64,000 nucleotides of DNA from an uncultured delta proteobacterium (GCA_963755715.1 CAVWLW010000026.1:64001-128000), one strand, 5' to 3'; shown: positions 7,323-55,147, counted from the stretch's first letter. The notes: generated from the letters alone by a model not told the origin. Program-made: numbers and translations.

Positions 7323-8170
7323 CTATTGCGCAAACGTCCCAGCCTGAAGCTCGCGCAGCGTCTGCTCGATCTCCGCTTTGGTATTCATCACGAACGGTCC
7401 ATAGCGCGCGATCGGCTCGTTCAGCGGTTTGCCGGACACTAAAAGGAAGCGCACTGCGCTCTCCTCCGTTCGTACTTCGACGCTATCCCCGTCGTCCCAA
7501 ACCACGAGTCGCGGCGTCGTGACGCTGCGTTTTTCGGGGCCGAACCTTCCCTCGCCCTCGAAGACATACGCGAACGCCGAATGGCCGCGTGGGATCGGCA
7601 GGCTGAAAGAACCGTGCGGCGCGATCGCCACGTCCAGGTACGTCGGCTCGGCGGCGATGCCGCTGATGGGACCGACAACTCCGTCAACCTGACCAGCAAT
7701 CACGCGAATTTTCGCGCCGCCCTCGCGCTTAATTTCGGCGATCTCGTTGGCGTTAACGTTCTGATAACGCGGCGCGATCATCTTCTGCTTCGCCGGCAAA
7801 TTGACCCAGAGCTGAAATCCTGCCACACCTTCCGGCCGCACCTGCGGCATCTCTTCGTGCATGATGCCGCGCCCGGCGGTCATCCACTGCAGATCGCCCG
7901 GCCCGATTTCGCCGGCATTTCCCACCGAATCTCTGTGGCGCACAGCGCCCGCAAGCAAATAGGTCACCGTTTCGATGCCGCGATGCGGATGCAACGGAAA
8001 ACCCGCTTGGTAATCGGCGGGATTTTTCGACTGGAAATGATCCAGCAGCAAAAACGGATCGAGGTAATCCAGCGTATGCGTGCCGATGCTGCGTTTGAGC
8101 CGAACGCCGGCGCCTTCGACGACCGCCTGCGGCTCGATAATTTTGCGAATTTTTCTCGATTGTCTTCCAT
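7323..8170 (-). CDS. Pirin family protein (1-bp frameshift near 8152, likely sequencing error)
   Basis: 'EGAGVRLKRSIG', 'DPFLLLDHF', 'HPHRGIETVTY', 'QWMTAGRGIMHEE', 'GPFVMNT'; RBS GGAGG before ATG 8170; extra A in an A-run. Confidence 0.9.
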
Positions 8171-8793: not shown

Positions 8794-8920
8794 CTTTCCA
8801 GTCTCCTTTTCATCGACGATTTGAAATCGCTCACCTGTCAGTCAGGTTATACATTCAAAGGTGCTTCGACTAGACGGCAAATCTTGGAAACATTGTTCCG
8901 TCTAATGTAGAATCGCCGGC

Positions 8921-9810
8921 ATGGATCTCGACGGCATCGAGGTTTTCGTCAAAGTCGTTGAAGCCGGCAGCTTCAGCCAAGCGGCGAAGCTTCTCGGCAT
9001 GCCCAATTCAACGGTAAGCGCCAAACTTTCGGCGTTGGAGAAGCGGCTCGGTGTTACCCTGCTGCAGCGCGTCGACGCGCAAGTTGCGCGCAACGCCGGC
9101 GGGAGAGACTTACTTTCAGCAATGCGTTCAGGCTCTGGAACAATTGCAAGCGGCGGAAAGTGAATTGACCAAGCGCGCAACGCGAACCGCAGGGACTTCT
9201 CAGAGTCACGGCTCCCGCGGACATCGGCCACACTCTTCTCGCTACGCTGGTGCGCAGTTTTTTACAGCAGTACCCGAAAACCGAAGTCGAGCTCGTGGTC
9301 ACCAACCGCGTGCTCGACCTCATCGCCGAAGGTGTCGATCTGGCGATCAGAGCCGGCGAGCTCGCCGACTCGAGGCTCATCGCCAAGCGATTCTCCGTCG
9401 GCAACATCGGACTGTGGGCGAGTCCTGCTTATCTGAAGAAGCGCGGCATGCCTTCGCATCCGCGAGATCTGGCGCCACAGGAGTGCCTGCAATTCTCGCT
9501 ATTCAAAAACAACCGATTGGAACTGACCAATGGTAAGGACAGCGTCCGATTGGTTCCCGCGGGGCGGTTGCGCGCCGATGATTTCGAAGCGCTCAAAGCG
9601 TTCGCGCTTCTCGGCGAAGGCATTGTCTATCTGCCGAGTTTTATGTGCGCCGAGGAAGTGAAGCAGAGTCGACTCCAACGAGTGTTACCCGATTGGCATG
9701 GCACAGCGACAACCTTCTCGCTCGTCTACCCCGCGCAACGATTCGTCTCGCCCAAGGTGCGCGCCTTCATCACCGTCGCCGAAGATCTCTGGCGGCGGCA
9801 AAAGTTCTAA
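8921..9810 (+). CDS. LysR family transcriptional regulator (split by frameshifts near 9070 and 9170-9185)
   Basis: HTH 'FVKVVEAGSFSQAAKLLGMPNSTVS...LEKRLGVTLL'; substrate domain 'DLIAEGVDLAIR'; divergent from reductase-pirin genes. Confidence 0.88.
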
Positions 9811-11011: not shown

Positions 11012-11977
11012 TTAATTTTTTCTTCGCCCCAACGCTTTTTCGACGAAGCTGAAATCGAACACCTGGCTCGGCGGCACTTCTTTCGTCACTGCCAAACTTT
11101 TCTTGGTGAAATCGATCGCGCCGCGCATCCAGGCGTCATCCAAGTAACTAAGCCCGCCGAGGCGGCTTAGATGAAGATCGTAGACTTCTCCGGCCAAGGT
11201 GAGATCTTTGACGCCCAGATATTTTGAGATGATGTCGATGGACTCGGGGCGATGCTGCGAATAGTATTGCAGCCCTTTCAGACTGGCTTTGACGAAGGCG
11301 AGGACTTCGGCCGGATTGTTTTTGATCTTTTCTTCCGTCGCGCCGACGCCGCCCGACGGATAACTGGCGAGATAATCTCCCGAGTACGCGAGCCGGCTGA
11401 AACCTTCACGGTAAAGAATCACCTGGCGCGGCGGGCTGAGCAGACAGGCGGCGATGAGTCCGGTTCTGAGCGCCGTCGCCAATTCCTCGGGCGTGCCGAT
11501 CACGATCGAAGTCACGTCTTTATTCGGCGTTAGCCCGTGCTTGGTGAGAATCAATTGTGTCAACAGATCGACCGCGCCGCCGCGCGAAGAGATGCCGACA
11601 ACTTTGCCCTTGAGCTGCGCGACCGATTTGAGATCCGGCTGGCCGACAAGATCGAACTGCGGCTTCGCGTTGACGATCAAAACGAGCCGCACCGGCGCGC
11701 CACGCACGCCGGCGGCGATAATCGATCCGGCGGCAGAAGCGTAATCGACCGAGCCGCCGATCAACGCCTGCATGCCAACTGAGCCGCGTATGAGAACCGT
11801 TTCAAGGTCGAGCCCTTCCTCGCGATAAAAACCTTTCATCTGCGCGATGCGGAATTGCATCTCGGTCACGGCGATGGAGCTCGTCGAAAAGCGAATCTTC
11901 TTGAGCTGCGCCGAAACAGGACCGGAGGTAACAATAGAAATAATCAGCGTAGCGATTGCAGCAGCAGTTCGTTTCAT
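11012..11977 (-). CDS. ABC transporter SBP, NitT/TauT family
   Basis: Signal peptide; 'KGFYREEGLDLE', 'LKGKVVGIS', 'QVFDFSFVEKA'. Confidence 0.88.
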   Translation of the reverse strand: MKRTAAAIATLIISIVTSGPVSAQLKKIRFSTSSIAVTEMQFRIAQMKGFYREEGLDLETVLIRGSVGMQALIGGSVDYASAAGSIIAAGVRGAPVRLVLIVNAKPQFDLVGQPDLKSVAQLKGKVVGISSRGGAVDLLTQLILTKHGLTPNKDVTSIVIGTPEELATALRTGLIAACLLSPPRQVILYREGFSRLAYSGDYLASYPSGGVGATEEKIKNNPAEVLAFVKASLKGLQYYSQHRPESIDIISKYLGVKDLTLAGEVYDLHLSRLGGLSYLDDAWMRGAIDFTKKSLAVTKEVPPSQVFDFSFVEKALGRRKN

Positions 11978-13266: not shown

Positions 13267-14392
13267 CTAGCGTTCGGTAGAACCACGAAACGCCGGCATA
13301 ACCTCATCGGCGAACAAGCGCAGGGAATTCATCGCCTGCTCCGTAGTCAGATTACCAAAGCAAAAAGACCCGACGAAGTAATTGCTGCCGGTGATCTCTA
13401 GATGCTTTTTCTACTTCTTCGCGCACCGTATCCGGAGCGCCGGCGATATAGAGTCCTTCGGCGCGACGCGCCTCGAAGTCGTCCAGATATTCTTTTCTCC
13501 GGTTATCGCCAACTTTTGATTGCAAGTAGCCGGTACGCTCGTTGAACTGTGCGAGCGCAGCCTTGGCTTCCTCCCAGGCTTGCGCATCTGTCTTACCAAC
13601 ATAGACATGCCGCGAAATGCCGTAAAGCGGCTCGGTCACATGCGCATTGAGGCGATTATGATCGTCCGCATGCTCTTTCCAAACGCGCCGATAGAGTTCG
13701 AACAGCTCGCGGATCGCCGGCATGGACTGGTAGTGTACCACCGTGTTGAATCCTTCTTGCGCCAACCATTGCATCGATTCGTTACTATTGGTCGGATACC
13801 AAAGCGGCGGATACGGGCGCTGGTAGGGCTCGATCTGCAGTTCCACGTTCTTGAAAGAAAAGTAACGGCCCTGGAACGCCAGCTTGCCACTGGCGAGAGC
13901 CGAAGTCATCGCGTCCAGCGCCTCGCGGAACATATCGCGCGACTGCTGCACGTCGATGTTGAAGAAGGACATCTCGATGGGCGAGATGCCCCGTCCCACA
14001 CCCACGTCGAGCCTGCCCCGGCTTAGGTTGTCGAGCATGCAGATCTCCTCGATCAGGCGCAGCGGATTATAGGCGGGCAGAACGTAAACCAAGGTGCCGA
14101 GACGGATGCGCGTGGTGCGCTGAGCGGCAGCCGCCAGAAAAATACTCGGCGACGGCGTCGTGTTCAGCGGCGAGCCATGATGTTCGGCGATGTGGTAGCA
14201 ATAAAAGCCCTTCTCTTCGGCGCATTCGATCAGCTTCAGGCGCTGCTCGTAAAGCTCGGGCAACGTTAACTGATTGCGATCGATCCAATCGAAGATACCG
14301 AACTTGATCGACGTTTTAAGTGGCGAGTCCGTAGTCTTATCCTTCGACTCGGTGATATTTCGCTCAATCCGTTTCGTGTCTTCAGATATCAC
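13267..14392 (-). CDS. LLM-class flavin-dependent oxidoreductase (luciferase-like monooxygenase); frameshift near 13405
   Basis: 'HIAEHH', 'AAQRTTRIRLGT', 'LDNLSRGRLDVGVGRG'; correcting the A-run gives 'SLRLFADEVMPAF' and a stop at 13267. Confidence 0.88.
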
Positions 14393-17389: not shown

Positions 17390-17545
17390 GCGGAAAAAAC
17401 TCTTCCAACTGACCTGACGTTCCGCCTCGAAAAGTTTTCGCGGCGTTGCGCAAATTTTTGACTGGCGCGGACCCTTGTGATTGAGTTTCATTTTCTTCTG
17501 CCCGTCTGGTATGTCACCTTTTCTCTACGGCGCGGATCACTGATC

Positions 17546-18526
17546 TTATCTCAATTCACTCACCGCTCGACGCGCAAAGCTGAAGTCGGCGACTTCCGCG
17601 AATGAAACGTCCCTCGATGTTTTGAGCGCCTCTTTGGCATTGGCGATGAACTCTTGCATCGCGTCGTCCGACACGATGCCCGTATCCGAGTAAAGCTTGA
17701 CGATTTCCTCATGGATCAACCCTGCCACTACGGGATCATGCACGCCCGATTCCTTGGCCAATAGTCTTGCGAATTCGATTCTTATTTTCCTTCAAAAACC
17801 GATTACCCAGGAGCGTCGCTTTGACCGTGCGCAGAATCATCTCCGGCTCGCCGCGGATTTTTTGCAAGGTCGTCACGAGGCCGCCCTGTGGCGTTTTGAT
17901 GAAATCGCGCAGCTGCACCAGTTCACGAAACCCCATCTTGACCGCCATCTTGTTGAAAGGCATCGACATGACGGTGCCATCGATTTGTCCCGCCTGCAGC
18001 GCGCTCAAGCGCAACGGATGATTGCCGTACAAGGCGCGCAGCTTGACGTCGGTCTCCGGCGTTAAGCCATATTTTCTCAAGCACGATTCGCGTGCCCACG
18101 TCGGTGAATTCGCCGATGCCGGAGACCGCTAGAGTTTTGCCCTTGAGATCCTCGACTCGGCGAATCTCCGGCCGCACCACGAGCGAAAAGTCCTGGCCGA
18201 CGGTCAAGGCCATCATCATTCGCAGCGGCAGGCCGCTCACGCTGGCGCGGGCACCGGACGCGAGCGCCGTGGAAAAATCCAGATCTCCGCTCATTAGCGC
18301 TTGCAGCGAGCTCGCTCGGACGCATGACGATCAACTCCGCATAAAGCCCTTGAGTCCGAAAAAATCCGTACGTTTGCGCCGCCGATAATCCCAAAGTGGT
18401 CGCGCCTCGGTTGGGCATGCCGATGCGGATTCTTTTCAGTCCGCCGCTTTCCTGGCTCCAGGCCGGCGGTGAAATAAGAATCAAAAGAATTACAAGAGCA
18501 CAGGCTCCGCAACTTTTCACGGTCAT
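17546..18526 (-). CDS. ABC transporter SBP, NitT/TauT family (about three frameshifts)
   Basis: Consecutive frames give signal peptide, 'GFFRTQGLYAE', 'EDLKGKTLAVS', 'ALQAGQIDG', 'EVADFSFARRA'. Confidence 0.8.
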
Positions 18527-18624
18527 GCTCCCGCCTCTTAACCCAAACGGCGGATTTTTCCAACACGTTGACGGCAGCGGCGGCGCGGTGCTAACGTCCT
18601 ACGCAGCAAGACAGAGTCACGAAT

Positions 18625-18706
18625 GTCATCCTGAGGTGAAACCGAAGGATCCCGTCTTTTGAATTAGGGCTTCGGTCGAGATTCTTCACCCGCGGCTCAG
18701 AATGAC
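18625..18706. repeat. GTCAT(C/T)CTGAG-type REP doublet
   Basis: gtcatcctgaggtgaaaccgaaggatcc ... agattcttcacccgcggctcagaatgac; related half-sites at 35486-35511 and about 37508-37533. Confidence 0.65.
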
Positions 18707-18757
18707 GTACTCGGTAACTTCGAGATCGGAACATCGCCTGAAAAGGAGGTAGCGAAC

Positions 18758-19546
18758 ATGAACTCACAGATTCGTTATCTCGGCGATCGTCAGCGAGCAA
18801 CCCGAAACCCTGGCAAACTTTTACTCCACCTATTTTAAGATGCGCGAGCTTGGCCGTTCCGACGACGGAGATGTCGCGGTCACCGATGGCTTTTACAATA
18901 TCTCGATCCTCAAGCAGCGCAGCGACGTCAGAAGAGACCGGCATCAGCCACTTCGGCATCACCATCGACGACATCGGTGCAGTCGAAGCGCGCATCAAAG
19001 AATTCGCGTCCGAACACGGACATTCGCAAAGAAGCAGGCGGACTTTTCCATGGAGACTATCGCGTCACCGATCCGAGCGGCCAATCGGTCACTCTCTCTA
19101 CCCATCAGTTCCACACACCCATCGTCGAACGCACATTCCCGTGCATCCGCCATCTCGCCGTGTGTGTGGCGAACAACGACGACGTGCTGGATTTTTATGT
19201 CAACGTCTTCGGCTTTCGCGAGTCGACGACCAGCAGACGGATTCGATCGGAAAACCGAGTTGTGCGCTGGGCCGCCGACGGTGCAACGGCGATGGCCATC
19301 CTGCCGGACCGAACCCGCCGCGACATGAACGAGAGAGAAAGCCCGCGCGATGGTCTAAATCACTTCGGCTGGCTGGTAAACAACATCGAGCCGTTTCTGA
19401 ATTCACTTCCCGAAGGCTGCGTCAGTCAGCGCCCCAGCAGCCGTCCCATGGCCGAGTACCGCGGCTTCGACCCCGATCACAACCCGTTCGACATCTCGCA
19501 AGACAAAGGTTACGAGATCGACGTCGACCGGTGGGTGCACGGATAA
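18758..19546 (+). CDS. Two-domain VOC family protein (frameshifted), paralog of 12192-13004
   Basis: RBS AAGGAGGT; 'QIRYL..', 'GISHFGITIDD', 'IRHLAV', 'GLNHFGW', 'DPDHNPFDIS'. Confidence 0.8.
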
Positions 19547-19671
19547 TTTTCCCATCGCCAGCGTAGTCACCGCCATTCCTTCAATCCGCGATGCAAGGCC
19601 TGGATTGCAACTTGTCGCGCCGGCGCTTCTTGCCGGGCGCGCGATCAGCGTACTCTTCTCAGCATTTTCGA

Positions 19672-21028
19672 ATGCTGAAACTGAAATCCATCTCTTTCTT
19701 AGCGCCGTTCTTCGCGATCGGGTTCGTGGCCGTTTACCTGCTGCATCCGAATTACGGCTCATCGGTCGTTGCGTCGCTCTGCGCCTTCAGCGCCGGCGTA
19801 CATTGCGCGCGGCAACGAAGCAGAGGAAAGTTTTCAAGCCTACCGCAAATCTCTCGCTGGCTATTACAAATCTCTCGCCAGCGCTTTGAACGCCCACGCT
19901 CCAGACCTGGTGGAAGCTTCTATCAGCACCGGGTCCGGTAAAAACCGGCTGTGAAAATTTACCCGCTGGTCTCAGACAGCGCGCAGGAAGCACAGCGAGC
20001 GCATCGATCCATCGGCTATAGCTGGCATGGACGGAGCGGCTGATTGCTATGGAACGGCGCGAGCTCGCCCGTTGCAAAAAACGAGCTGCATGTACAGCGA
20101 CCGCTGCTGAATGAAACCCAACGAAGGAGCTCGAAAGACTCGTGCTCGATTACCGCCGATTGTGCGAGAAACTAAGAAACATCGACGCGCACATCCAATA
20201 TAACCGCTTCTGGCAAGCCGTATTGCCGCCGATAGCGCCGGTTACGACCGCGAGACGGAACTGCACGACGAAGTGCTCGAACGCCGAGAAGTTCGCGACG
20301 AATTGCGCAATCTGAACGACCCCTGGTCTATGGTTTCGCTACAAGCCGATCCGTGCGCTGGCTGGCCTGAACGGGGTTCACTAGTAATTTGAAAAGACGC
20401 GAAGCGCTTCTTACTCAACGCATCGATAGCGCGATCGGGCGGGTTAAAACGCCCTTGTTCGTCGCCATGGAACATCGTCCGCAGGAATGGATTCGCGTTT
20501 CGGTTTACACGGACATCGCCAATCGAGACTTTGTCGCGGTTGCGAAACGCAATATCGAAGCGATCTGGAAATTGCGCGACGGCACTCGGGAGTCTCGCGT
20601 CGAGCTGGATATTACTTACATTCCCAGCGAAAGTTTATATGCCGGCGGAGAAGTGCCGGCTGTCGGTGCGCCGATCGATCTCCCGCGTCACTTGCAAAGA
20701 TTTCCCCGGGACGGTGCGATCTTCACGACCGGCGCATTGACCACGCATGTTCAGAGTTATGCGATCGTGTTGGGGCCGCACGCAATCACGCCACGAATAT
20801 TGCGCCCATGAATTTGGTCACCTCTTGGGCTTTCGAGACGCCTATGTGCGCGGGTATGAGGATCTGGGCAAAGACGGCTTTCAAGTCTTAGAAGTGGGCA
20901 CCGACTCCGCCGATATCATGGCCGATCCGGTCGCGGGATCGGTGCCGATCAAATATTTTGAGATGTTGTTAAACAACCGCTGCGTAAAGACGCCGCGAGT
21001 TCCTGCCGACACCGCGCGCCTGATGTGA
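19672..21028 (+). CDS. Putative exported zincin-type metalloprotease, heavily frameshifted
   Basis: N-terminal hydrophobic helix; C-terminal 'HEFGHLLGFRD' (HExxHxxGxxD) followed by a Met-turn-like 'DIM'. Confidence 0.55.
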
Positions 21029-21051
21029 AATTATTTTAGGCGAGTAGACGA

Positions 21052-21131
21052 GCTTTGGCGGACCCAGACGGACGGCAAGTTGTCTTTCGCAACAACTGTG
21101 GGGGGCGCGCCCGTCGAGGTCCGCCGAAGCT
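21052..21131. repeat. Long inverted repeat (REP-like, possible bidirectional terminator)
   Basis: agctttggcggacc ... ggtccgccgaagct between convergent genes. Confidence 0.6.
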
Positions 21132-21158
21132 GATTAAACCTTCGCTGGCCGCTGTTGG

Positions 21159-21551
21159 TTAATGATCATGACCGCGTGATGCCGCGACGATCCCTATGAT
21201 CACGACCGCAAGCACACCCAGCCCGATCAATAATACTGTCGGATCGACGCCCAATGGGGTTCCACCGGTCGGACCGGATGGTCCAGCTGGACCGGGGACT
21301 CCTGGCGCTCCGGCGGGTCCTTGAGGTCCGGGAACACCTCGCTCACCTTCCGGTCCCTTGCGTTCTACTCGCGGACAGTTTTGCTGAGATTCCCGGCCCT
21401 GTACTTGAATGTCGAAGTTGGTATCGCCTGCTTTTCCTTCTATCCGCGCTCCTTCATTCTTTCTTGGAGAATCTTGGGCCACCACGGAACCGGCGAATCC
21501 GAGCGCGAAAAATAGCAGCAAAAGGCTTAATAAATATTTGTGCTGTTTCAT
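21159..21551 (-). CDS. Small exported collagen-like protein with C-terminal membrane anchor
   Basis: Signal peptide; 11 consecutive Gly-X-Y triplets (GPE GER GVP GPQ GPA GAP GVP GPA GPS GPT GGT); C-terminal TM helix; RBS AAGGAGGTGA. Confidence 0.85.
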   Translation of the reverse strand: MKQHKYLLSLLLLFFALGFAGSVVAQDSPRKNEGARIEGKAGDTNFDIQVQGRESQQNCPRVERKGPEGERGVPGPQGPAGAPGVPGPAGPSGPTGGTPLGVDPTVLLIGLGVLAVVIIGIVAASRGHDH

Positions 21552-21580
21552 GATTCACCTCCTTCTTCTCAAGAGAGTCG

Positions 21581-21628
21581 AGCAAAATATATGCCCCATT
21601 CGGCCTTTGAAATAATATCAAAGACTTA
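21581..21628 (-). promoter_or_regulatory. Putative sigma54 (-24/-12) promoter with adjacent IHF site
   Basis: Minus strand GG-CATATATTTT-GCT (GG-N10-GC) at 21581-21595; TATCAA-AGAC-TTA at 21616-21628 matches IHF consensus WATCAANNNNTTR. Confidence 0.6.
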
Positions 21629-21809
21629 CACGCGCCGAAAAACTCTTCCGCTAAAAGCCATAAAAAATAGCGCCCGGTTACGATGATTTTCTCTTTCAAT
21701 TGCAAGTGGAAATCATACGTCGATTTTCAGGCAGAAAATTTCCGCTAGAGATCCGGGCGTGACCACGGTTGGCAAAACGAGTTGAGCTGATTAAAAAATT
21801 CTTCTGGTT

Positions 21810-24838: not shown

Positions 24839-25080
24839 TGCTTTTCTTTCTGTGATCGCCGCGAGAAATTTCCGCGCCGATCGACACGCCCCTCGTACCA
24901 TAATCCGCGCGGCCGGAACAACTGCGCCGGAGCGCCGAACGATCGACTTGCGGCAAGCCTCAGGACCTTCTAAGAGAATTCGTCGCTGCAAGCTTCGCTG
25001 CCAACCTTTCCGCTTCGCCTATTGCAAACAGTGCAGCCGGTAAGATAAGAGGAAACGCGATCATCCGGCCCGCCGGCTGG

Positions 25081-26109
25081 ATGCGAAATTCATCGTTACA
25101 TGCGCGCCCTCCCATGAAGTCTCTTCGCGTTTCGCTGGCTTGCTGCCTCTTTGCCGCCGTTTTCGCCGCGCCGCTCGCGGCACAAGACAAGAAACTGACC
25201 CCAGTTTACCTCGGCTACTCGGCGATCAGCGGCAGCTTCGCGCCGCTCTGGGTTGGCTTCGATCAAGGCTTATTCGCGAAACACGGGCTTGATCTTAAGA
25301 TGGCCTACATCCAAGGCAACCGGGTGATGATGTCGGCGTTGACGGCCGGTGAGATTCACATTTATCAAGGCGGCGCCGAAGGTTTGATCCGGCTCGTATC
25401 GGGCGGCGGCGACGGTATTTTCATCGCTACTCAGTACAACGTCGTCGGCCACTACGTGCTGATGACCGATCCGAGCATCACCCGGCTCGAGGACCTGCGC
25501 GGCAAGAGGATCGCTCTCGATCCCACCAGCCCCACTTACGGCTACATGCTCAAAGTGTTGGAGCAGGTTGGTTTGAAAAAAGAAGATGTAAGCTTCGTGC
25601 AATTCGGCACCGTCGGCCAACCGGAGCGCGCCATGGCGGTCATGCGCAAGCAAGCCGCCGCGACGATTCTCACCGCGCCGAATACTTACGCCGCCGAGAA
25701 GCAAGGCTTAAGAAAATTTTCGATCATCCGCGAGCTCGGCATCCGTCAATTGATCACGGTCAGCGCGACGACGAAAAGATTTCTCCGGGAAAAACGCGAA
25801 GCCGCGGACGGGTATCTACGTGCCTACGTCGAAGCTCTCGCTTATGTAAAAGCCAATCGCGACGTCACAATGAAAGTGATCGCCAAATACACGCGCCAGC
25901 GCGAGCCGGACGTGCTCGCTAAATTCTACGATGAGATGGTGCCAGACCTGCCACGTATCCCCTACATCGACGAAGTCTCGGCGCGCGCCACCATTGACGC
26001 CATGCAGGCGCAGGGCCCGCCGCTGCCGAAAGTCGATGTGAAAGCGCTATACGACAATAGTCTGTTGAAGACGATCGAAGCGGATCTGGATCGGGATAAA
26101 CGGCGGTAG
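25081..26109 (+). CDS. ABC transporter SBP, NitT/TauT family (start possibly 25114)
   Basis: Signal peptide; 'APLWVGFDQGLFAKHGLD', 'EDLRGKRIA'. Confidence 0.88.
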   Translation: MRNSSLHARPPMKSLRVSLACCLFAAVFAAPLAAQDKKLTPVYLGYSAISGSFAPLWVGFDQGLFAKHGLDLKMAYIQGNRVMMSALTAGEIHIYQGGAEGLIRLVSGGGDGIFIATQYNVVGHYVLMTDPSITRLEDLRGKRIALDPTSPTYGYMLKVLEQVGLKKEDVSFVQFGTVGQPERAMAVMRKQAAATILTAPNTYAAEKQGLRKFSIIRELGIRQLITVSATTKRFLREKREAADGYLRAYVEALAYVKANRDVTMKVIAKYTRQREPDVLAKFYDEMVPDLPRIPYIDEVSARATIDAMQAQGPPLPKVDVKALYDNSLLKTIEADLDRDKRR

Positions 26110-26153
26110 TGACCGAGGGCGAAAACGGGGGGACGAACCTTTGTTTCTTTTCT

Positions 26154-26218
26154 GCTTAACGCGTTCGCATTGACCGGCGAGCCGCTTGCGGCGAGTCCGG
26201 TCGAATGCGTGGTTCGGC
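26154..26218 (-). mobile_element. Integron attC site
   Basis: Minus strand GCCGAAC-CACGC-ATTCGACCGG...CCGGTCAAT-GCGAACGC-GTTAAGC: R'' and R' boxes, paired L boxes with one extra C, central hairpin; the L'-R' spacer is slightly long. Confidence 0.75.
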
Positions 26219-26288
26219 CTCATGTGCTCACTTACGTCGATCGCGGCAAAGCGCGTGTTCATTAGGTCGCATGGAGGATGAGCTTCGT

Positions 26289-27100
26289 TTAGCCCGGTTC
26301 CATTCCCTGCGATTTGATGACCGGGATGGCAGTTGGACCGGTGAGGAATTTGATCAGATCTCGCGCCGCACCCGGCGCTTTCGAGTCTGCGCTAACTCCA
26401 GCGAGTAAACACGGTGTAGAACTGAATCTCGGGGGGAGCGGCCCGACCAGTTCGACGCCGGGTGTCGTCAAGATCTGCGTGATAACCACCACCCCGAGCT
26501 CGATTTCGCCCTTGGCGACAAGTTCGGAAACGATATCGGAAGTCCGGTATCGTCACTTTCGACTTGATCGCATCCGCAATTCCAAGCCGATCGACCAGCT
26601 GCGGCACTCCGCCGCTCGGGAGGTAGCCGATCGATTTGGCATTGAGCAGCGCACGCTTGAATGCCTCGACCGAGCTGATGTCAGGTTTGGGCGCGCCCGC
26701 GCGCACCCCCACGCCAATTCCCGAGCGCACGAGATTGGTGCGCGTGTCGGCAATGACCTTGCCGTCTTTGATCAAGCCCGTCGATAGTAGGCGGCGGACT
26801 GACGAAAACGTCAAACGGCTCGCCGGCATTAATTTGCTTTACGAAGTTGGGGCTGAAGCCGGAGATCACGTTGAGCTTGTGCCCGGTTGTGCGCTCGAAT
26901 TCAGGCCCGATCTTGTCCAACACGGTCGCGATCGCTCTAGAGGTAAAGACCTTGAGTTCAGCGGCGTTGGCAGCACTGCGGTGAGTCGAAATGGTCACAA
27001 GGAAGAAAATCGTCGACACTCTCACAACCGAAACAGCCTTTGTGAACAGCCGCTCGGGCGTCGTCGAAATACCGATCCCTGCGCAAGAATTACTCAACAT
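26289..27100 (-). CDS. ModA-like (molybdate SBP-family) protein carried as an integron-type gene cassette; frameshifted
   Basis: 'AELKVFTSRAI', 'VRSGIGVGVRAGAPKPDISSVEAFKRALLNAKSIGY', 'GVELVGPLP', 'IKSQGMEP'. Confidence 0.8.
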
Positions 27101-27119
27101 GACTTCCTCGTAAGGCCCA

Positions 27120-27242
27120 GCCTAACTATTAAGTGAGCCGCCGTAGGCAGCGACAATTACTGGTCGGCTTATCCCGGCGACGCCTAGGACAATAAAGGAT
27201 CAAATCGTATGCAATATCCATCAGCTAACAGAGCGTTGTCAA
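27120..27242 (-). promoter_or_regulatory. attI-like core site (GTTAGGC) and candidate Pc promoter
   Basis: Minus strand ...cacttaataGTTAGGC (27126-27120) about 20 bp before the cassette ATG; TTGACA (27242-27237)-18 bp-GATATT (27218-27213) points at the cassette. Confidence 0.55.
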
Positions 27243-27437
27243 CATTAGTATTCCGCCAAAAGCCGACCGGCACGGCGGCTTATCTCCCTAACAACTCGCA
27301 GTCTATCTCCGCGGCTTGCTTGGCTGACGCCATCCCGTCACAAACGATACCTCTGCCTCCTCGGTTTAAATATTGTGGTGCTGTCTGCGATGCCGAACGG
27401 TGAGAGAGATTCGTCCTGAACCGAACACCGCGCGACT

Positions 27438-28550
27438 TTACGAAGAATGTGCCTCAGCCCTGCGCTGCTCGATCGAATAGCGTACCAAGGCGGCGTAGCG
27501 GTAAACGACGTGGGCGAACTTTCCATAGGGCAGCGTAATGAATAGTCCCGCGACGATACCTAAGTGAATGACCAAAAGCGTTCCCATCGCCGCGGTTTCG
27601 CGGAACACGAGCAGCACAAGACCGGTGAAGCTGGTGAGAAACAGCAGCACGAGAAATGCTACGTCCATGTTCAACATGCTTGCATCCGCCGGTGCGCGAT
27701 CGCTTTTCCACTTTAAGTAAAGCAGGCCCACGGTGCCGATCAGTAAACCGACGCCGCCGACGGTGCCGAGAACGACCGGCGCGCTAAAATACGGATACGG
27801 CGCCTGCCAATCAAGAAAGTGATCGTAAAACGCCGCGATGCTGGTAGCGGCGAAGTCGAGCAGAAAGCCGTAGAAGACCAGATGGTGGTACCACATTCGC
27901 GCGCGTGAAAAATTTTCCGCGGGGTAATTGCAGCCGGCGCCGCCGCCTTTCATATAGGCGAGGCCGAAAGCGTCTTTGGTCGCGCGCCACAGAGCGGCGG
28001 GATCGATTAGCGCAGAAATTGGTCCCTGAGTTTCGCGCCAAAAGCGGACCGCGCCGATGATGAAAACCGTCAAACCATAGAGCGCGATCAGCGACGGTGG
28101 CACGGTCATGGCGACAAACGGCACGACGCGGTAAAACGTCCCTTCTCCGAGATGGGTAGCGAATAGAACATTAGGGCCTTGGAACAAAAGTACGAGCGCG
28201 AGAATAATGATTATCGACGCGACGGTAATCGCACTCACCGCCAACACGTTGCGTTTGAACAGAACCGAAAGAAGCGCCGGCCAGGTGAACTCCCGATAAG
28301 TATCGGCGCGCAGCTCGGACATGAGTTTCGGAATATTGACGCCGAACTCATGCGGCGGCGCGTACTGGCAGGCGTAATAACAGTCGCGGCAGTCGAAACA
28401 GAGATTCGCTAGATAGGTCAGATCGGCTTTGGTAAAAACGCGGCGCTGTTCCATCGCCGGAAAAACCGCGCAGTATCCTTCGCAGTAACGGCAAGCATTG
28501 CAGATCGTCATCTGCCGCGCGCCGTCCTTTACCAGATCAAAATCCGGCAC
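27438..28550 (-). CDS. tcuB: Tricarballylate utilization 4Fe-4S membrane protein TcuB
   Basis: 'CNACRYCEGYCAVFPAM', 'CFDCRDCYYACQYAPPHEF', 'LPYGKFAH'; overlaps tcuA. Confidence 0.95.
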   Translation of the reverse strand: MPDFDLVKDGARQMTICNACRYCEGYCAVFPAMEQRRVFTKADLTYLANLCFDCRDCYYACQYAPPHEFGVNIPKLMSELRADTYREFTWPALLSVLFKRNVLAVSAITVASIIIILALVLLFQGPNVLFATHLGEGTFYRVVPFVAMTVPPSLIALYGLTVFIIGAVRFWRETQGPISALIDPAALWRATKDAFGLAYMKGGGAGCNYPAENFSRARMWYHHLVFYGFLLDFAATSIAAFYDHFLDWQAPYPYFSAPVVLGTVGGVGLLIGTVGLLYLKWKSDRAPADASMLNMDVAFLVLLFLTSFTGLVLLVFRETAAMGTLLVIHLGIVAGLFITLPYGKFAHVVYRYAALVRYSIEQRRAEAHSS

Positions 28551-32276: not shown

Positions 32277-32937
32277 ATGGCAATCGAACTTTACTGGGGC
32301 AGCGGCAGCCCCTTCGCGTGGCGCGTAATGTTGACTCTCGAAGTGAAGGGACTGAAGTATGAGTCGAAGCTTTTAGAATTTTCCAAGGGCGAGCACAAAA
32401 CGCCGGCCTATCTTCGGCTCAATCCCCGTGGCAAAGTGCCGACGCTCAAGGATGGCGAATTTGTCGTCTACGAATCCATCGCAATCATGGCCTATCTCGA
32501 TCGCAAATATCCCGATCCGCCGCTGTTCGGCAAAACCGCTGAGGAAGCGGGCTTAATTTGGCGCGCGATCTGCGAATGTGAGTCCTATCTTGTGAGCGCC
32601 GGTGACAAAGTCGTTCGTCCGATTTTTTTCGGCAAGGGTCTCGACCAGGTCGACGAAATCCAACAGGCGGCGCGGACAGATTCGCGAAGAGTTAAAAAGC
32701 GTCGACGAGCGTCTGGTCAACTCGAACTGGTTAGTCGGCAGAGAGATTTCCGCTGCCGATATCAATCTATTTCCGTTAGTCCAACTGTTTTTGCGTGCCG
32801 CCTCCAAAGAGGCCGCGCAGCCATTTAACCTGGGGTTGATACCATTGGCGCAAACGTTTCCAAACATTGCCCGCTGGGTAAAACAGATCGAGGCGTTGCC
32901 TAATTACCAGCGCACCTACCCGCCCCATTGGCGATAA
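32277..32937 (+). CDS. Glutathione S-transferase family protein (frameshift near 32672)
   Basis: 'GSPFAWRV', 'LNPRGKVPTL', 'ESIAIMAYL'; C-terminus 'ISAADI...FPNIARW' in another frame. Confidence 0.88.
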
Positions 32938-32980
32938 ACGCAAATTCGAATTCCCCCCACACACTAAGGAGCCATCGACG

Positions 32981-33391
32981 ATGGAAAAAATGTTTGCCGG
33001 CGGATGTCTTTGCGGTGCCGTCCGCTACGAATGTTCGGCAAAGCCGATGATGACCGGCAATTGCCATTGTCGCGATTGCCAGAAGTCGAGCGGCGCACCC
33101 TTCGTGACGGCGATGGCCGTACCCGCTTCGGCGTTAAAAATCAGCGGTGACGTCAAGTATTATGAAATTAAAGCCGATAGCGGGAACGCTTTCAGCCGCG
33201 GTTTCTGCCCGGAATGCGGTGCGCGCCTGTTTGCCAAATCCAGCGGCATGCCTCGTCTCGCTCTGATCACCGCGGCAAGCCTGGACGACCCAAGCCAATT
33301 TCGACCCGCGATGGATTTTTATATTTCCAGCGCCCAGCCCTGGGATCATATGGATCCCGCGCTGCCCAAGTTTGCCAAAATGCCGACGTAG
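32981..33391 (+). CDS. GFA/CENP-V family protein
   Basis: 'GGCLCGAVRY', 'CHCRDCQK', 'FCPECG' zinc motifs. Confidence 0.92.
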   Translation: MEKMFAGGCLCGAVRYECSAKPMMTGNCHCRDCQKSSGAPFVTAMAVPASALKISGDVKYYEIKADSGNAFSRGFCPECGARLFAKSSGMPRLALITAASLDDPSQFRPAMDFYISSAQPWDHMDPALPKFAKMPT

Positions 33392-37654: not shown

Positions 37655-39175
37655 ATGGGATTTCTTAGCGCTGAAGAACTGAATCGGTTGTTACCCGCTG
37701 AAACTTTCGCCTACCCGTCGCCGATACCGACTCAGTCGGTATCCAGCGATGAATTCATGCCCGCGCCGCAGACCGAAAAACAGCGCGAGTTCGAGGCGCG
37801 CATCAAAGAATTCGGCGGCGAGCTGGCGCGTAGACAAGGCATGTCCCGGCGCGCTTTTTTTAAAACCGCCGCCGGCATGGCCGCCGCATTTGTCGCCATG
37901 AACGAAACCTACGGCGAGCTCTACGACGCGAGCCGCGCCGAGGCGGCGATCCCGGAGATGGCGGGCGAGCGCGCCAAGGCGCTTTCCAATCAATTCGTCA
38001 TGGACATGCACACCCATTTTCTGCGCGACGACACGCGCATCACCAACTTCGTGCGCCAGCGCGAAGCCGTCGGCAAAGCAGGCTGGAATCCGGCATTGCA
38101 AGGCAAACCGCAGACTATCGAAGATCTCAAGTTCGCCAACTATTTTAAGGAAGTGTTTCTCGACAGCGACACCAAAGTCGCCTGCATCAGCGGTTCGGCA
38201 TCGGAAGATCCGCGCGATTGGTTCCTGACGAATGAAATGAAGTTCGATGCGCGCGCCAAGGTCAACAAAGAAGCCGGCACCAAGCGCATGTTCTCCCACG
38301 CGATCATGACACCGGGCTGGCCGGGCTGGCTCGACAAGGTCGATGAGGAGATGGAGAAGCTCAAACCCGATTCGTGGAAGGGTTACACCATCGGCGACAA
38401 CACCAACAAGAATCTTTCGAAACACCCCTATCGGCTCGATAACGAGAAACTCATGTATCCGTTTTACGAGCGGTTGGTGAAATGGAGCAAGGACCATCCG
38501 GGTGTGGTCAATGTTTGTATTCATAAGGGATTGTTCCCGCCATCGGTCGAGCAGCAGTTCCCCCATCTGGTCGGCTACTGTCACGTCGGCGATGTGGGTA
38601 AGGCGGCAAAGGATTGGCCGCAGTTGAATTTCATCATCTATCATTCTGCCTACCGTTGGGCCGGCGGCGGCACCGCCGAGGAAGCTTTGGAGCAACTGAA
38701 CCGCACCGGACGCATCGAGTGGGTTAACGATCTTGCCGAAATACCAGAGCAATACGGCGTAAAAAATGTTTACGGCGACCTTGGCCAGATCTTCGCCCAG
38801 AGCACGATGGCCGATCCGCGGATCTGCGCCTTCATGATGGGCACGTTAGTCAAAGGGCTGGGCTCCGATCACGTGGTGTGGGGGTCGGACGCCGTGTGGA
38901 CCGGCTCGCCGCAGTGGCAGATCGAAGCGCTGCGCCGTTTGGAAATCCCCGAGGAGATGCAGAAAAAACATGGCTTCAAGCCGCTCGGCCCGGCGGACGG
39001 CCCGGTCAAGCGCGCGATTTTCGGCGAAAACAACGCTCGCCTGTATCATTTCAACGCGCAGCAGCGCTCGGCGCTGGATAATGATCGCTTTGCGCAGCTG
39101 AAAGAGGATTACGAGAGGAACGGCGCCGCGCGCAGCAATCTCACCTACGGCTATATTTACAAACCGAAGGTTTGA
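37655..39175 (+). CDS. Amidohydrolase family protein with internal twin-arginine-like motif
   Basis: 'MDMHTHF', 'WKGYT', 'CIHKG', 'IYHS', 'WGSDAVWTGSPQWQIEALRR'; 'SRRAFFK' about 65 aa in; RBS AAGGAGG. Confidence 0.88.
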   Translation: MGFLSAEELNRLLPAETFAYPSPIPTQSVSSDEFMPAPQTEKQREFEARIKEFGGELARRQGMSRRAFFKTAAGMAAAFVAMNETYGELYDASRAEAAIPEMAGERAKALSNQFVMDMHTHFLRDDTRITNFVRQREAVGKAGWNPALQGKPQTIEDLKFANYFKEVFLDSDTKVACISGSASEDPRDWFLTNEMKFDARAKVNKEAGTKRMFSHAIMTPGWPGWLDKVDEEMEKLKPDSWKGYTIGDNTNKNLSKHPYRLDNEKLMYPFYERLVKWSKDHPGVVNVCIHKGLFPPSVEQQFPHLVGYCHVGDVGKAAKDWPQLNFIIYHSAYRWAGGGTAEEALEQLNRTGRIEWVNDLAEIPEQYGVKNVYGDLGQIFAQSTMADPRICAFMMGTLVKGLGSDHVVWGSDAVWTGSPQWQIEALRRLEIPEEMQKKHGFKPLGPADGPVKRAIFGENNARLYHFNAQQRSALDNDRFAQLKEDYERNGAARSNLTYGYIYKPKV

Positions 39176-39237
39176 GTTTTTCCGACTTTGGCGGCACCGT
39201 CGATCGACGGTGCCGCTACTCGCGACAAAGCAATTTC

Positions 39238-39922
39238 ATGTCAAATGAGTTAAAAATTCTCAGCGCCGGGGCGGTGAAACCCGGACTGACCAAAGTCATC
39301 GATGCGTTTCAACGCGACAGCGGCAACAGAGTCCAAGTCTCTTTCGCGACGGCTCCGGCGATTCTGAAGCAAATTGGCGAGAGCGAATCAGTCGATGTCG
39401 TGATCGCGCCGCCCGGCTTGCTCGAACAGCTCGTGAAATCCGGAAAATACGCGGCGCGCAAGGCGATAACTCTTGGCCGAATTGGCGTCGGCGTTTTGGT
39501 GCGCAATGGTGAGCCATTGCCGGACATTTCCAACGTCGACGGCTTCAAGCAGTCGCTACTCGGCGCGGAGTCCGTGGTTTACAACCAAGCTTCGACCGGG
39601 ACCTATCTTGAGACGCTTTTCGAATCGCTCGGCATCGGCGCGTCGATCAGAGACAAAGCGACACGTTATCCTGATTTCGCCGCCGTCCTCGATCACGTCA
39701 GCAAGGGCAAGGGCCGTGAAATCGGTCTGGGCGCGACCACCGTCATCATCGAGAACGAGAACCGTGGAGTAAAATTCGCCGGCCCGCTGCCGGCTGAGAT
39801 TCAGAACTACACAACTTACGTCGCGGCTCTCATCGCCGACGACCGAGGTTGCACAGCAGTTCATGCGTTTCCTCGCATCCCCGACCGCAAAAGTCCTTCT
39901 TACCGCCGCCGGCATTCAGTAG
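39238..39922 (+). CDS. ModA-like SBP-fold protein with no visible signal peptide (frameshift near 39850)
   Basis: 'LKILSAGAV', 'GRIGVGVLVR', 'STGTYL', 'GPLPAEIQNYTTY'; corrected end 'FLASPTAKVLLTAAGIQ*'. Confidence 0.78.
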
Positions 39923-39950
39923 CGAAGGCACACAACATCTCGGTTGGAAT

Positions 39951-40019
39951 CACCGCGGAGGCACAGAGTTCGCAGAGATTATTTTACTCGTCCCCTCTGC
40001 GTTCTCTCGTCTCTGCGGT
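39951..40019. repeat. 9-bp-period (C(A/G)CAGAG) inverted repeat
   Basis: caccgcggaggcacagagttcgcagaga ... ctctgcgttctctcgtctctgcggt between convergent genes. Confidence 0.65.
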
Positions 40020-40085
40020 AAATCGTTGTTTTTGGGTTACGGTATCGCCGTGCAGGACACTTCACAGCGAAATCCTTAAGCGGTA

Positions 40086-40601
40086 TTATCCAGCCGTCTC
40101 GAACGACAACGTCGCATAGCGCATAAAGATGCCGCCGCGCGGCTCGGCGAGCGGGCCGTTCGCCACCAGGCAAGCGATGACATGCTTGGTTCCCGGCGCG
40201 GCCTTGTTGTCTACTTCTACGCGCTGCGATGCATTGATGCCCACGATCACCCCGGTGGCGCGGTCGATCCTGCCGTCGATCCACACCTCGCCATAGTTAT
40301 CGACGTTGGTTTCAAACCAGACGCGAAAACCGGCGACATCGACGCCGTTGACTTTTTCGGGCAGCTCGACGGTGATGCGGTACCAGGCGAAGGTGAATCC
40401 CTTCGAGATGCTCTTGCGGATGTTGGCGCAGATCTCCCAGCCGGAGTCGTCGTAATCCGGCAAACGGGCGGGCGTGTTCAGCAGCTGCGCGGTAAGTCCT
40501 TCGTTAGGCTGACCGGGCACAAGGCCATGGCCGACGCGCCATTGTCCTTTGATCTTGCGACAGTCTTCAGCATTATTGAGATCTAGAGTGATTCTCGGCA
40601 T
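40086..40601 (-). CDS. Hypothetical protein resembling a stand-alone GH2-type sugar-binding (jelly-roll) domain
   Basis: 'PDYDDSGWE', 'FAWYRITVELP', 'VDNYGEVWIDG', 'IACLVANGP'; RBS AAGGAG. Confidence 0.65.
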   Translation of the reverse strand: MPRITLDLNNAEDCRKIKGQWRVGHGLVPGQPNEGLTAQLLNTPARLPDYDDSGWEICANIRKSISKGFTFAWYRITVELPEKVNGVDVAGFRVWFETNVDNYGEVWIDGRIDRATGVIVGINASQRVEVDNKAAPGTKHVIACLVANGPLAEPRGGIFMRYATLSFETAG

Positions 40602-46260: not shown

Positions 46261-46803
46261 ATGCCACGCTTACCTGAAATCGACGCAACCCAACTCTCTC
46301 CCGAACAGCACGTGATTTACGACCGGCTGATGCGCGAGCGCGGCCATATGCGCGGGCCCTTCGCCGTCTGGCTGCGTAACGCCGAGCTGTGCGAGAACAC
46401 GCTCAAGTTACAAGAAATGTTCGCTTCGCGCGTGAACCTCGAACGGCGCTTGCTCGAGTTGATGATTCTCGTCGCCGCGCGTTTCGCCACCGCGCAGTAT
46501 GCCTGGTTCATCCACGAGCCCCACGCGCTCAAGTTCGGTATCGCGCCCGAGATTGTCCAAGCCATCCGCGAGCGCCGCGTGCCGGATTTCACCCGCGACG
46601 ACGAACGGTTGGTTTACGACATCACGATGGAGCTCAACACCACCCGAACGTTGTCCGACGCAAGCTACCAACGCGGCATGGCGCTGTTCGGCGAACAAGT
46701 GATGGTCGAGCTCGTCAGCGCGATCGGCTTCTACTCCATGGTCGCCATGACGCTCAACGCCTTCGCCGTGTCCGTGCCCGGTGACAAGGAACCATTTGCT
46801 TAG
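46261..46803 (+). CDS. Carboxymuconolactone decarboxylase/AhpD-like protein
   Basis: 'RGPFAVWLR', 'ELMILVAAR....QYAW..H', 'VELVSAIGFYSMVAMTLNAF'. Confidence 0.85.
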   Translation: MPRLPEIDATQLSPEQHVIYDRLMRERGHMRGPFAVWLRNAELCENTLKLQEMFASRVNLERRLLELMILVAARFATAQYAWFIHEPHALKFGIAPEIVQAIRERRVPDFTRDDERLVYDITMELNTTRTLSDASYQRGMALFGEQVMVELVSAIGFYSMVAMTLNAFAVSVPGDKEPFA

Positions 46804-46862
46804 AAGCATCAAATGGGAGCCTCTCTCGGACAAGCAATCACCGTTACTCGCAATTTTTTAAT

Positions 46863-47913
46863 ATGAAGGCCCTCATCGCCACCCTTTTCGTCCTACCCCT
46901 CATCGTCAACGCACCCGTATGGAGCCAAGCCAATAAACCATCGTCTGCGGCCGATTTAGCCGCCTACATCGGGTCGGATCGCGAGCGCTTGCTGCTCGAT
47001 GGCGCCAAACGCGAAGCCAAAGTCGTCTGGTACACGACTCTGGCCGCTGAGCAAAACAAGCAAATCGCCGGCGCATTCGAAGCAAAATATCCCGGTGTAA
47101 AAGTCGAGACGTTTCGCACCGGATCGTCGGCGCTCGCGCAAAGACTCCTCACCGAGGCCAAAGCGAAGCGCCACATCGCTGATGCGATCGAAACGACGCT
47201 GCCGGGTTTGCTGACCTTCCGTGATAATCAGTTGCTGCTGCCTTATACTTCGCCGCACCTCGGCGGATTTCCCGACGACGCCAAGGAAAATGGGCCAAAG
47301 AATCTCGTTTACTGGACTATCGCGCGTGAATCGTACATCGGATTCGCTTATAACAAGAATTTTTTGAACGCGGCCGACGTGCCGAAAAACTTTGATGGGC
47401 TTCTCCGACCCTGGGCTGAAAGATAATATGGGATTATCCGGCGACGACACCGGCGCGCGCATCGTCGGCGCCATGGTGAAGACCAAAGGCGATGGTTTTG
47501 TTAAAAAACTAAAAGAACAAAACATCAGAATGCACATGATGGCCGGCAGCGCTCTCACTCAGCTTGTCGCCGCGGGAGAAATCTTCGCATCGCCGAGCCA
47601 GTTCTACAGCGCCACCAACGTCGCCGCCAAACGCGGCGCACCGGTGGCTTGGGTGCCGATGGATCTGGTCGTCGCCAACGCCGGCGGCGCGGCGGTATAC
47701 GTGAACGCGCCGCGGCCGCACTCTGCGCTTCTTTTTGCCGATTTTCTCTTGAGTCCCGAGGGACAAAAATTGCTCGAAGATTTGTACTTCGGCAGCGCCA
47801 AGAAAGATTATGGATTTAAGCGTTGGTATCCGGAAAAAGGCGGGACAATAGCCCAATACGAAGAAGCGTTGGAAGGCTGGCACAAACTGCTCAAGGAAGT
47901 CACTCGGAAGTGA
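46863..47913 (+). CDS. ABC transporter solute-binding protein (Fe3+-type; frameshift near 47410)
   Basis: 'RERLLLDGAKRE..VVWYT', 'AFEAKYPG', 'APRPHSALLFADFLLSPEGQ'. Confidence 0.85.
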
Positions 47914-54945: not shown

Positions 54946-55147
54946 TGCGCGGTGCGGGTCGAAGCAAGAATTGCGGCACCAAAAAGTCTTGGCAAGTTCC
55001 GAGCCTCGCTATTGAGGATTGATCATCATGAGACGTTCATTTCCATTGGAATCGGGATTGGTATGTGCGCCCGGGAAATCTTTTTAGTCCATTGCAGCCA
55101 CCCCTCTTTGAAAAAGAGGGGCCGGGGGAGATTTATTGCTATCGTGT

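Follow-up and report, generated by a model that had tools for sequence, protein, structure and literature searches.

A Probable Integron-Type Gene Cassette without a Local Integrase at a Variable Interval beside tcuB in an Uncultured Binatia-like Bacterium

Results

A Cassette-like Unit Lies between tcuB and a Convergent NMT1-Family Gene

We analyzed a 64-kb window of DNA (64,000 nucleotides (nt)) from an uncultured delta proteobacterium (GCA_963755715.1, CAVWLW010000026.1:64001-128000), in which all coordinates count from the first letter; loci with L numbers are DNA of relatives or of fetched plasmids. On the minus strand of this window, tcuA and tcuB are followed by a 337-nt spacer, a solute-binding protein (SBP) gene of the SBP_bac_11 family, an attC-like site and a convergent NMT1-family gene. 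We consider it likely that the SBP gene and the attC-like site make up an integron-type gene cassette with no local integrase, i.e., a single attC site lacking an integrase (SALIN) or the final member of a very short cluster of attC sites lacking an integrase (CALIN). The original prediction had described an integron remnant here, with promoter, core site, one cassette and attC; the promoter hexamers with their N18 spacing, the core and the ribosome-binding site (RBS) are indeed present on the minus strand, and the array does stop right after the attC, with the stop of the convergent gene at 26109. The elements of the locus are as follows.

29934-28537, minus strand: tcuA, with tcuB the conserved left neighbor
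28550-27438, minus strand: tcuB, conserved left neighbor
27118..27292, minus strand: block X, a conserved intergenic block downstream of tcuB, 76-85% identical in L039 (two copies) and L012
26289..27100, minus strand: cargo, SBP_bac_11 ('ModA-like') periplasmic binding-protein gene with RBS (PF13531), with four 1-base indels
26154..26218, minus strand: attC-like site of 65 nt, from covariance models, grammar scan and bulge layout
26218-26212, minus strand: R'' box GCCGAAC, then a 5-nt spacer
26206-26197, minus strand: L'' ATT[C]GACCGG, with extrahelical C; the second extrahelical base, [A], comes next
26177-26169, minus strand: L' CCGGTCAAT, pairing with L'', then an 8-nt spacer
26160-26154, minus strand: R' box GTTAAGC, which fits GTTRRRY
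26110..26153, minus strand: right flank of 44 nt from the attC to the NMT1 stop, overlapping the terminator-like hairpin of the NMT1 gene
26123-26146, plus strand: terminator-like hairpin of the NMT1 gene, overlapping the right flank of the attC
25081..26109, plus strand: convergent NMT1-family SBP gene, conserved right neighbor

The RBS and start codon of the cargo occupy 27109-27098 (ATG at 27100) and its stop codon 26291-26289, and the attC-like site begins 71 nt past this stop in the same orientation as the open reading frame (ORF). The proposed cassette would extend from about 27125 to 26160, roughly 966 bp, and comprise the SBP_bac_11 gene with its own RBS and the 65-nt attC. A distance of 19 nt from core to ATG and a single co-oriented ORF with its attC in about 1 kb amount to a cassette-like economy.

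Architecture and Fold of the attC-like Site

The R'' box GCCGAAC agrees with the consensus RYYYAAC at six of seven positions, the deviation being a G at position 4; a one-base deviation in R'' also occurs in 5 of the 15 real sites (GGCTAAC, GCATAAC twice, GTACAAC and CGCTAAC). The predicted fold consists of 3 bp, a bulged C, 6 bp, a bulged A and a distal stem, with both bulges on the R''/L'' arm. We found the same bulge layout in the folded attC sites of aadA1, aadA2 and VIM-2, and likewise in that of aacA4 except for a second bulge of 2 nt. In attC sites the extrahelical bases (G and T on the bottom strand) set the choice of strand.

Compared with class 1 attC sites (aadA1, aadA2, aadB, VIM-2, aacA4 and others), the site shares the arrangement R''-5 nt-L''...L'-spacer-R' with two extrahelical bases, its co-orientation with the upstream ORF and its length (65 nt, real sites spanning 57-133 nt). 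It differs in its score (21.5-22.6 bits versus 37.5-82.4), in a 3' spacer of 8 nt versus 5-6, in its R'' GCCGAAC and in three spacer bases that can extend the L stem and leave an asymmetric unpaired center. In the minimum-energy fold these three bases of the spacers pair, leaving 2 and 5 nt unpaired; the 5' spacer is itself 5 nt, and the assembly is indel-prone. A repeated element of the repetitive extragenic palindrome or miniature inverted-repeat transposable element type was considered for the hairpin and rejected, as no second copy exists in the window or in 77 related loci.

The Site Stands Out in Covariance-Model and Grammar Searches

From class 1 integrons on public plasmids (L079-L090) we extracted 15 distinct attC sites. 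Model R1 was made from 14 of these, given the canonical structure; realigning 18 hits to R1 then yielded model R2, and the candidate was part of neither. With filters off, the top window match of both models was 26218..26154 on the minus strand, aligned end to end at 21.5 bits (E 0.0042) with R1 and 22.6 bits (E 0.0013) with R2; the E-values are rough because the models are home-made, represent mobile class 1 cassettes only and had a shortened calibration. The runner-up in the window reached 13.6 bits (R1) and 14.8 bits (R2) at 7682-7758 (+), inside a pirin gene; lying on the strand opposite to this gene and having five or six non-standard L-stem pairs, it was taken as a false positive. Real class 1 attC sites scored 37.5-82.4 bits (26 hits), and all else in 184 kb of plasmid DNA scored 13.6 bits or less.

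Across the 343,071 bases searched with filters off, only four matches reached 15 bits: the window site, two sites in L044 (24.8 and 16.4 bits) and one in L012 (15.0 bits). All four are intergenic, adjoin tcuB and lie just downstream of a co-oriented ORF, and the best remaining scores were 14.8 bits (the pirin gene) and 14.1 bits. Default-filter searches of 1.04 Mb of relatives' DNA missed both L044 sites later found with filters off; they are therefore not a complete null, and the filters-off null covers 343 kb only.

We also scanned with a grammar requiring R'' with at most one mismatch, 4-6 nt, 3 bp, a bulge, 6 bp mirrored, 4-8 nt and an exact R'. Allowing 0 stem mismatches, it gave a single match in 1,099,769 bases on both strands, namely the candidate attC, and in the positive control all 18 matches (18/18) in 234,122 bases of integron plasmids were true attC sites. 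An earlier motif-plus-hairpin scan took its thresholds from the candidate itself and is thus descriptive only. The attC match exceeds chance. The claim of a 65-nt attC is borne out in that its motifs lie where they had been placed and both covariance models and the grammar scan match it; the covariance-model search that had been proposed as a check ranked the site first in the window, with home-made models.

The Same Interval Carries Different Cargo in Related Genomes

A scan based on tcuB gathered 77 loci, mostly from Candidatus Binatia metagenome-assembled genomes (MAGs), the best being 88-89% identical and none a self match, and six of these keep both tcuB and the convergent NMT1 gene (the syntenic set). 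The SBP of the window was found in 0/6 syntenic loci and in none of the 77 loci at E<=1e-5; one weak 28% match lies elsewhere in L012. The tcuB-to-NMT1 interval is different in each of the six syntenic loci, two being near-empty and four holding other genes.

L016, about 183 bp: near-empty
L041, about 249 bp: near-empty
L010, about 690 bp: GFA-family gene
L001, about 1.6 kb: IS200-like Y1 transposase with DnaA-type helix-turn-helix, tandem decamers, second tcuB 3' end
L012, about 2.5 kb: ABC_sub_bind-type SBP and methyltransferase
L039, about 2.7 kb: short ORFs, acyl-CoA-dehydrogenase-like gene, second block X copy

An invariant locus would have spoken against the original prediction; in the relatives, instead, empty and alternative-cargo alleles exist, with breakpoints at the GTTAGGC core, an outcome that favors the prediction, as does that of the covariance-model check. 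With other cargo or none in the same interval of related Binatia, the place behaves as a cassette hot spot.

Two of these alleles have structures of their own. In L001 (11260-12620) the IS200-like gene stands between tandem decamers, AGAGTTTAGG-like on one side and GACCCCGACCCT-like on the other, and past it lies a second copy of the last 71 tcuB codons with about 60 nt of downstream flank. In L039, block X copies at 11274-11424 and 13592-13707, about 80% alike, bracket about 2.2 kb of cargo, a duplication that none of the explanations considered here accounts for. A 63-residue ORF in L039 (12153-12344), with no Pfam match, may be the C-terminal end of a GFA-family protein, which it resembles by eye. 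The window itself has a GFA gene at 32882-33388, of the same family as the L010 cargo. The short-read Binatia contigs of L002, L004, L024, L027, L035 and L044 stop 0.2-1.2 kb past tcuB; these stops may reflect assembly breaks in a strain-variable or repeat-bearing region, or chance.

Further attC-like Sites Adjoin tcuB in Two Other MAGs

Under default filters, the 2.5-kb interval of L012 accounted for two of the three best R2 matches in the 1.04 Mb of relatives' DNA, one of 15.0 bits after the methyltransferase gene and co-oriented with it, the other the end of block X (12.8 bits; the window's own block X end was not listed at E<=10). A further L012 site, after the SBP gene, scored 9.0 bits. 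The L012 SBP unit starts past GTTAGGC, and the exact complement, GCCTAAC, comes after it.

The grammar scan pointed to L044, a short Binatia contig. Positions 2772-3727 on its minus strand hold two full-length attC matches on one strand, of 24.8 bits (E about 5e-4) and 16.4 bits (E about 0.1), which flank a co-oriented ORF of 248 residues adjoining tcuB, with a signal-peptide-like start and no Pfam match. Past the first site of this array, which reads toward tcuB, the contig continues for 69 nt. The R' of the first site (GTTAGAT) and the R'' of the second (ATCTAAC) are exactly complementary, as a circularizable cassette requires; L044 is a CALIN-type unit in another Binatia MAG. Complementarity of core and R'' is 7/7 for L012 unit 1 and for the L044 unit, and 5/7 for L012 unit 2. 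Cassette-like units hence adjoin tcuB in three MAGs (window, L012 and L044), in two orientations.

In L031, 7214-7298 (-) gave a 14.1-bit attC-model match between a glutathione S-transferase (GST) gene and tcuA, and this locus, unlike the window and other relatives, has no SBP_bac_8 gene at that place. The GST-tcuA gap may be another variable spot.

Block X Ends in a Core at Which Homology Breaks Off

Block X contains the following features, and ttaataGTTAGGC, which includes the core, is present upstream of the cargo.

27281-27258, minus strand: short hairpin with a T-run
27213..27242, minus strand: sigma-70-like promoter TTGACA-N18-GATATT (TTGACA 27242-27237, GATATT 27218-27213), reading toward the cassette
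about 27184-27133, minus strand: imperfect leader hairpin in a leader of about 85 nt, followed by TTAATA and GTTAGGC
27120..27126, minus strand: core GTTAGGC, which fits GTTRRRY; proposed left crossover between G and TT (G/TT); homology breakpoints

Homology by blastn ends at window position 27124 with L039 copy 1, at 27122 with L039 copy 2 and at 27118 with L012. All three breakpoints are thus within the 7-nt core or at most 2 nt past it, and no homology returns before the end of the NMT1 gene. In the alignment, the junctions are GTTAGGC, GTTAGGC, GTTGGAC and GTTAGAG. The left junction of the window unit is G/TTAGGC and the right junction G/TTAAGCAGA. As had been claimed, the core GTTAGGC and the inverse core GCCGAAC are complementary at 6/7 positions; about 5/7 is the chance expectation for boxes that conform to the consensus, and this complementarity alone is weak as evidence beyond chance.

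A promoter scan returned this one site, with 10/12 matches; since shuffles of the 1.7-kb region gave 0.6 sites on average, the promoter is not significant alone. Both hexamers are kept in L012 and L039 copy 1, and judged from its sequence the site may function as a promoter. The leader hairpin, which would make block X a structured leader RNA, has 18 predicted pairs, of which only one shows a compensatory change among four close sequences. Beyond L039 and L012, block X was not found elsewhere in the window or in the 77 loci; the upstream region of L010, considered as a possible homologue, aligns poorly with it, and the near-empty alleles L016 and L041 lack it. We rejected the idea that the attC had diverged from a copy of block X, since 466 of 1000 shuffles reached the best local alignment score of 15.

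A Stem-Loop behind an Ordinary Accessory Gene Explains the Locus Less Well

A number of observations weigh against a cassette. Phage_integrase was matched by 0/63 window ORFs of at least 120 residues, tblastn with IntI1 gave no window match at E<=10 and, in the 77 loci, nothing better than E 0.03, and the relatives showed no integron integrase within +/-10 kb; the original prediction had reported no intI in the 310 bp before tcuB. The site scores well below every real class 1 attC tested (lowest 37.5 bits), with E-values that are only rough. It carries the non-consensus G at R'' position 4 and a 3' spacer of 8 nt where real sites, compared by eye, have 5-6 nt, and R'' and R' are complementary at 5/7 only and unpaired in the minimum-energy fold (R boxes are also unpaired in 3/9 real attC sites folded as top strand). 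The hairpin alone is unexceptional, at -17.1 kcal/mol with a z of -1.9, and 9 of 200 shuffled sequences give an equally good fold. The cargo gene is interrupted, no attC match was found for the cargo of L010 (GFA gene) or L039, and the L039 block X duplication and the L001 IS200-like insertion show that other processes also remodel the interval. Some selection is also built in, since the earlier reader chose the site by eye on the same features.

Much of this would suit an ordinary accessory gene with a 3' stem-loop, acting as mRNA stabilizer or weak terminator, in a recombination-prone interval, where the attC likeness and the GTT words at the edges are coincidental and cargo differences arise from generic deletion, illegitimate recombination or homologous recombination between strains. 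The unremarkable energy, the unpaired R boxes, the low score, the lack of a nearby integrase, the attC-less cargo of L010 and L039 and the events in L001 (with its tcuB 3' duplication) and L039 all favor it, as does the low information of RYYYAAC/GTTRRRY, of which 452 such pairs occur in 1.1 Mb. We nevertheless regard this explanation as unlikely. The site comes first at full length in both models, 8 bits above background, is the sole perfect grammar match in 1.1 Mb with a clean positive control, and has its double bulge at canonical spacing. Moreover, independent attC matches lie at tcuB-adjacent variable DNA of two other MAGs, one of them in a cassette with its R'' the exact complement of the R' upstream, and three independent breakpoints fall within the core or no more than 2 nt past it.

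Class Assignment and Proposed Mechanism

With no adjacent intI, the window does not hold a complete integron. It contains one clear attC, and a CALIN has at least two, as L044 does; with a single clear attC, SALIN is a fitter term than the CALIN named in the original prediction. A single attC with a coding sequence and no integrase or att site nearby is what defines a SALIN, and this is the arrangement observed. The junction further shows the GWT at the crossover and the CRGM at +6..+9 of an attG-type genomic site, a motif defined with IntI1 in E. coli, and relatives show presence and absence of cargo at the same junction. We conclude that this is probably a genuine integrase-less, SALIN-type cassette at a cassette hot spot.

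Published work reports that SALINs outnumber CALINs in RefSeq genomes (3400 versus 2961), that integrases place cassettes at genomic 5'-GWT-3' sites, that inserted cassettes are expressed near a resident promoter, and that IntegronFinder 2 by default asks for at least two attC sites (bioRxiv 10.1101/2022.09.11.507474; PMC9024848). In the same preprint, attG hotspots have CRGM at +6..+9 (bioRxiv 10.1101/2022.09.11.507474). Here CAGA stands at +6..+9 after the G/TT of the right junction (26154-26151); this degenerate 4-nt motif is expected once per 64 positions, and its definition may not hold for a Binatia integrase.

Like other SALINs, the unit has one coding sequence and one attC, with neither an integrase nor a second clear att site in the vicinity; a resident promoter-like site lies just before it, both junctions are G/TT, and CAGA occupies +6..+9 of the right one. 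It differs in that the call was made with home-made models, not IntegronFinder, in an uncultured Binatia-like host, that relatives hold other cassette-like units in the same interval, and that its cargo is frame-shifted. With CALINs it shares the integrase-less cassette context, into which L044 (two sites) and L012 (one moderate and two weak sites) would fit, whereas the window has a single above-noise site.

The mechanism we propose calls for an integron integrase gene at some other place, whether in this genome or in that of an earlier donor or host. Its product would recombine the attC, as a folded bottom strand, with the double-stranded GTT that ends block X, and the sigma-70-like promoter about 95 nt upstream would then transcribe whatever is inserted. 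Action of IntI, past or present, and transcription of the cassette from this promoter are both inferred. The block X site would thereby be serviced in trans, now or formerly.

It is tempting to speculate further that block X is an integrase-unlinked landing pad composed of a cassette promoter (Pc) and an attI-like site, repeatedly loaded and unloaded by a trans-acting integron integrase in Binatia, in effect a 'split' integron platform; we hold this only tentatively, and rather doubt it. As in an attI plus Pc platform, the block X promoter reads into a GTTRRRY core with differing cargo across genomes, but block X has no adjacent intI, is doubled in L039 and is missing from the near-empty alleles. 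An attG-type, promoter-proximal genomic site or a decayed attC would describe block X just as well as an attI-like site.

Alternatively, the locus could be the decayed stump of a complete chromosomal integron, in which block X is the old Pc-attI platform after deletion of its intI, and only the SBP cassette survives from a larger array; this is the 'remnant' of the original prediction in its literal sense. Block X does join a conserved promoter to a GTTRRRY core common to genomes with different cargo, and units adjoining tcuB in three MAGs and two orientations would fit an old array broken by rearrangements. This we think improbable: tcuB sits where a divergent intI would be, the window contains no IntI-like remnant by tblastn at E<=10, and the near-empty L016 and L041 are without block X. 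In addition, most CALINs are not beside intI pseudogenes and small ones may stem from insertion (bioRxiv 10.1101/2022.09.11.507474; PMC9024848). The cassette itself may either have been inserted in trans or have survived from a larger array or integron remnant.

The Cargo Gene Is Interrupted by Single-Base Frame Changes

The N-terminal piece of the cargo matches PF13531 (E 4e-11). With the first 108 cargo residues as query, 311 proteins at E<=0.001 were found among 515 candidates, and the best relatives are intact proteins of 269-270 residues with PF13531 at 86% identity. The ModA-like ORF of the original prediction proved not to be one ORF, its reading frame being broken into three (26681-27100, 26392-26829 and 26289-26492). 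In tblastn, an intact relative matched the region in pieces in three frames at 86-87% identity (out-of-frame stretch excluded). Four 1-base frame changes are needed, near 26782-26770, 26547-26535, 26438-26425 and 26409-26396, and there is otherwise no nonsense codon; by eye, three of the four resemble an extra base and one a missing base within a run of six C. These four indels mean that the cargo is either recently inactivated or locally mis-called in a poor consensus. The GC content of the cargo is host-like (57.8%, window 56.9%), which fits exchange among close relatives.

Frame breaks in related MAGs reach even tcuA and tcuB, so that assemblies of this kind are indel-prone. This raises the question of whether the whole unit is an assembly artefact, with a mis-joined or poorly polished mixed-strain consensus explaining both the indels and the odd junctions. 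Other window genes are split as well, and with 4 breaks in about 0.8 kb the cargo is far more densely affected than the rest of the window. Indels, however, cannot make an attC architecture or a full-length SBP gene of 86-87% identity, both junctions run cleanly into conserved flanks, and similar units occur in independent assemblies. We consider an artefact very improbable.

The other interrupted genes of the window include a LysR gene (8906-9810) whose helix-turn-helix and substrate domains are in different frames, an NMT1 gene in two pieces (17739-18330), an SBP_bac_8 gene in two pieces (46785-47910) and hyuA (52854-55008), with its N-domain out of frame with the catalytic domain. A second SBP_bac_11 gene (39172-40119) has a nonsense-looking C terminus. 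These split genes reflect either an indel-prone assembly or a pseudogene-rich genome.

Implications for Possible Cassette Traffic in Binatia

Binatia are an uncultured soil and sediment phylum. If the cassette reading is correct, it would imply integron-type cassette traffic in Binatia, and our full-text literature search found no paper pairing Binatia or Binatota with integrons. It would also be a natural case of one promoter-proximal chromosomal site holding different cassettes per lineage with no nearby integrase, and a concrete route for the turnover of orphan SBP genes, which are very numerous in the window. The landing-pad reading, if true, would supply a natural counterpart to the promoter-proximal genomic hotspots that have until now been demonstrated in laboratory E. 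coli alone. The element is not a new kind, as SALINs and CALINs number thousands in RefSeq genomes, and the work on attG sites and SALINs predicts such cases from E. coli experiments (bioRxiv 10.1101/2022.09.11.507474). What may be new is that different cargo re-uses one conserved promoter-bearing site without a linked integrase.

Flanking and Neighboring Sequences

No tRNA or tmRNA gene that could serve as an integration target lies in 25000-28000. Rfam at E<=10 gave no family at the region; no attC family appeared, Rfam's attC content not having been looked up. The single Rfam match nearby is unrelated (16 bits, 25035-25094). The right flank of the attC shows weak similarity to the flank past the second attC-like site of L012 (17 of 2000 shuffles equal; six targets tried). 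Homology of the right flank to the flank of L039's second block X copy was rejected, the shared 9-mer being unconvincing (88 of 2000 shuffles equal).

Orphan binding-protein genes are unusually dense across the window, with at least 10 of the NMT1 family and several of SBP_bac_8, SBP_bac_11 and SBP_bac_1, interspersed with amidohydrolase, luciferase-like monooxygenase and hydantoinase genes. A HicB-like ORF lies at 5791-6114. The 4.4 kb at 17390-21809 are nearly devoid of Pfam matches; fragments of broken NMT1 genes, a glyoxalase-like frame and a weak match to collagen repeats are all they contain.

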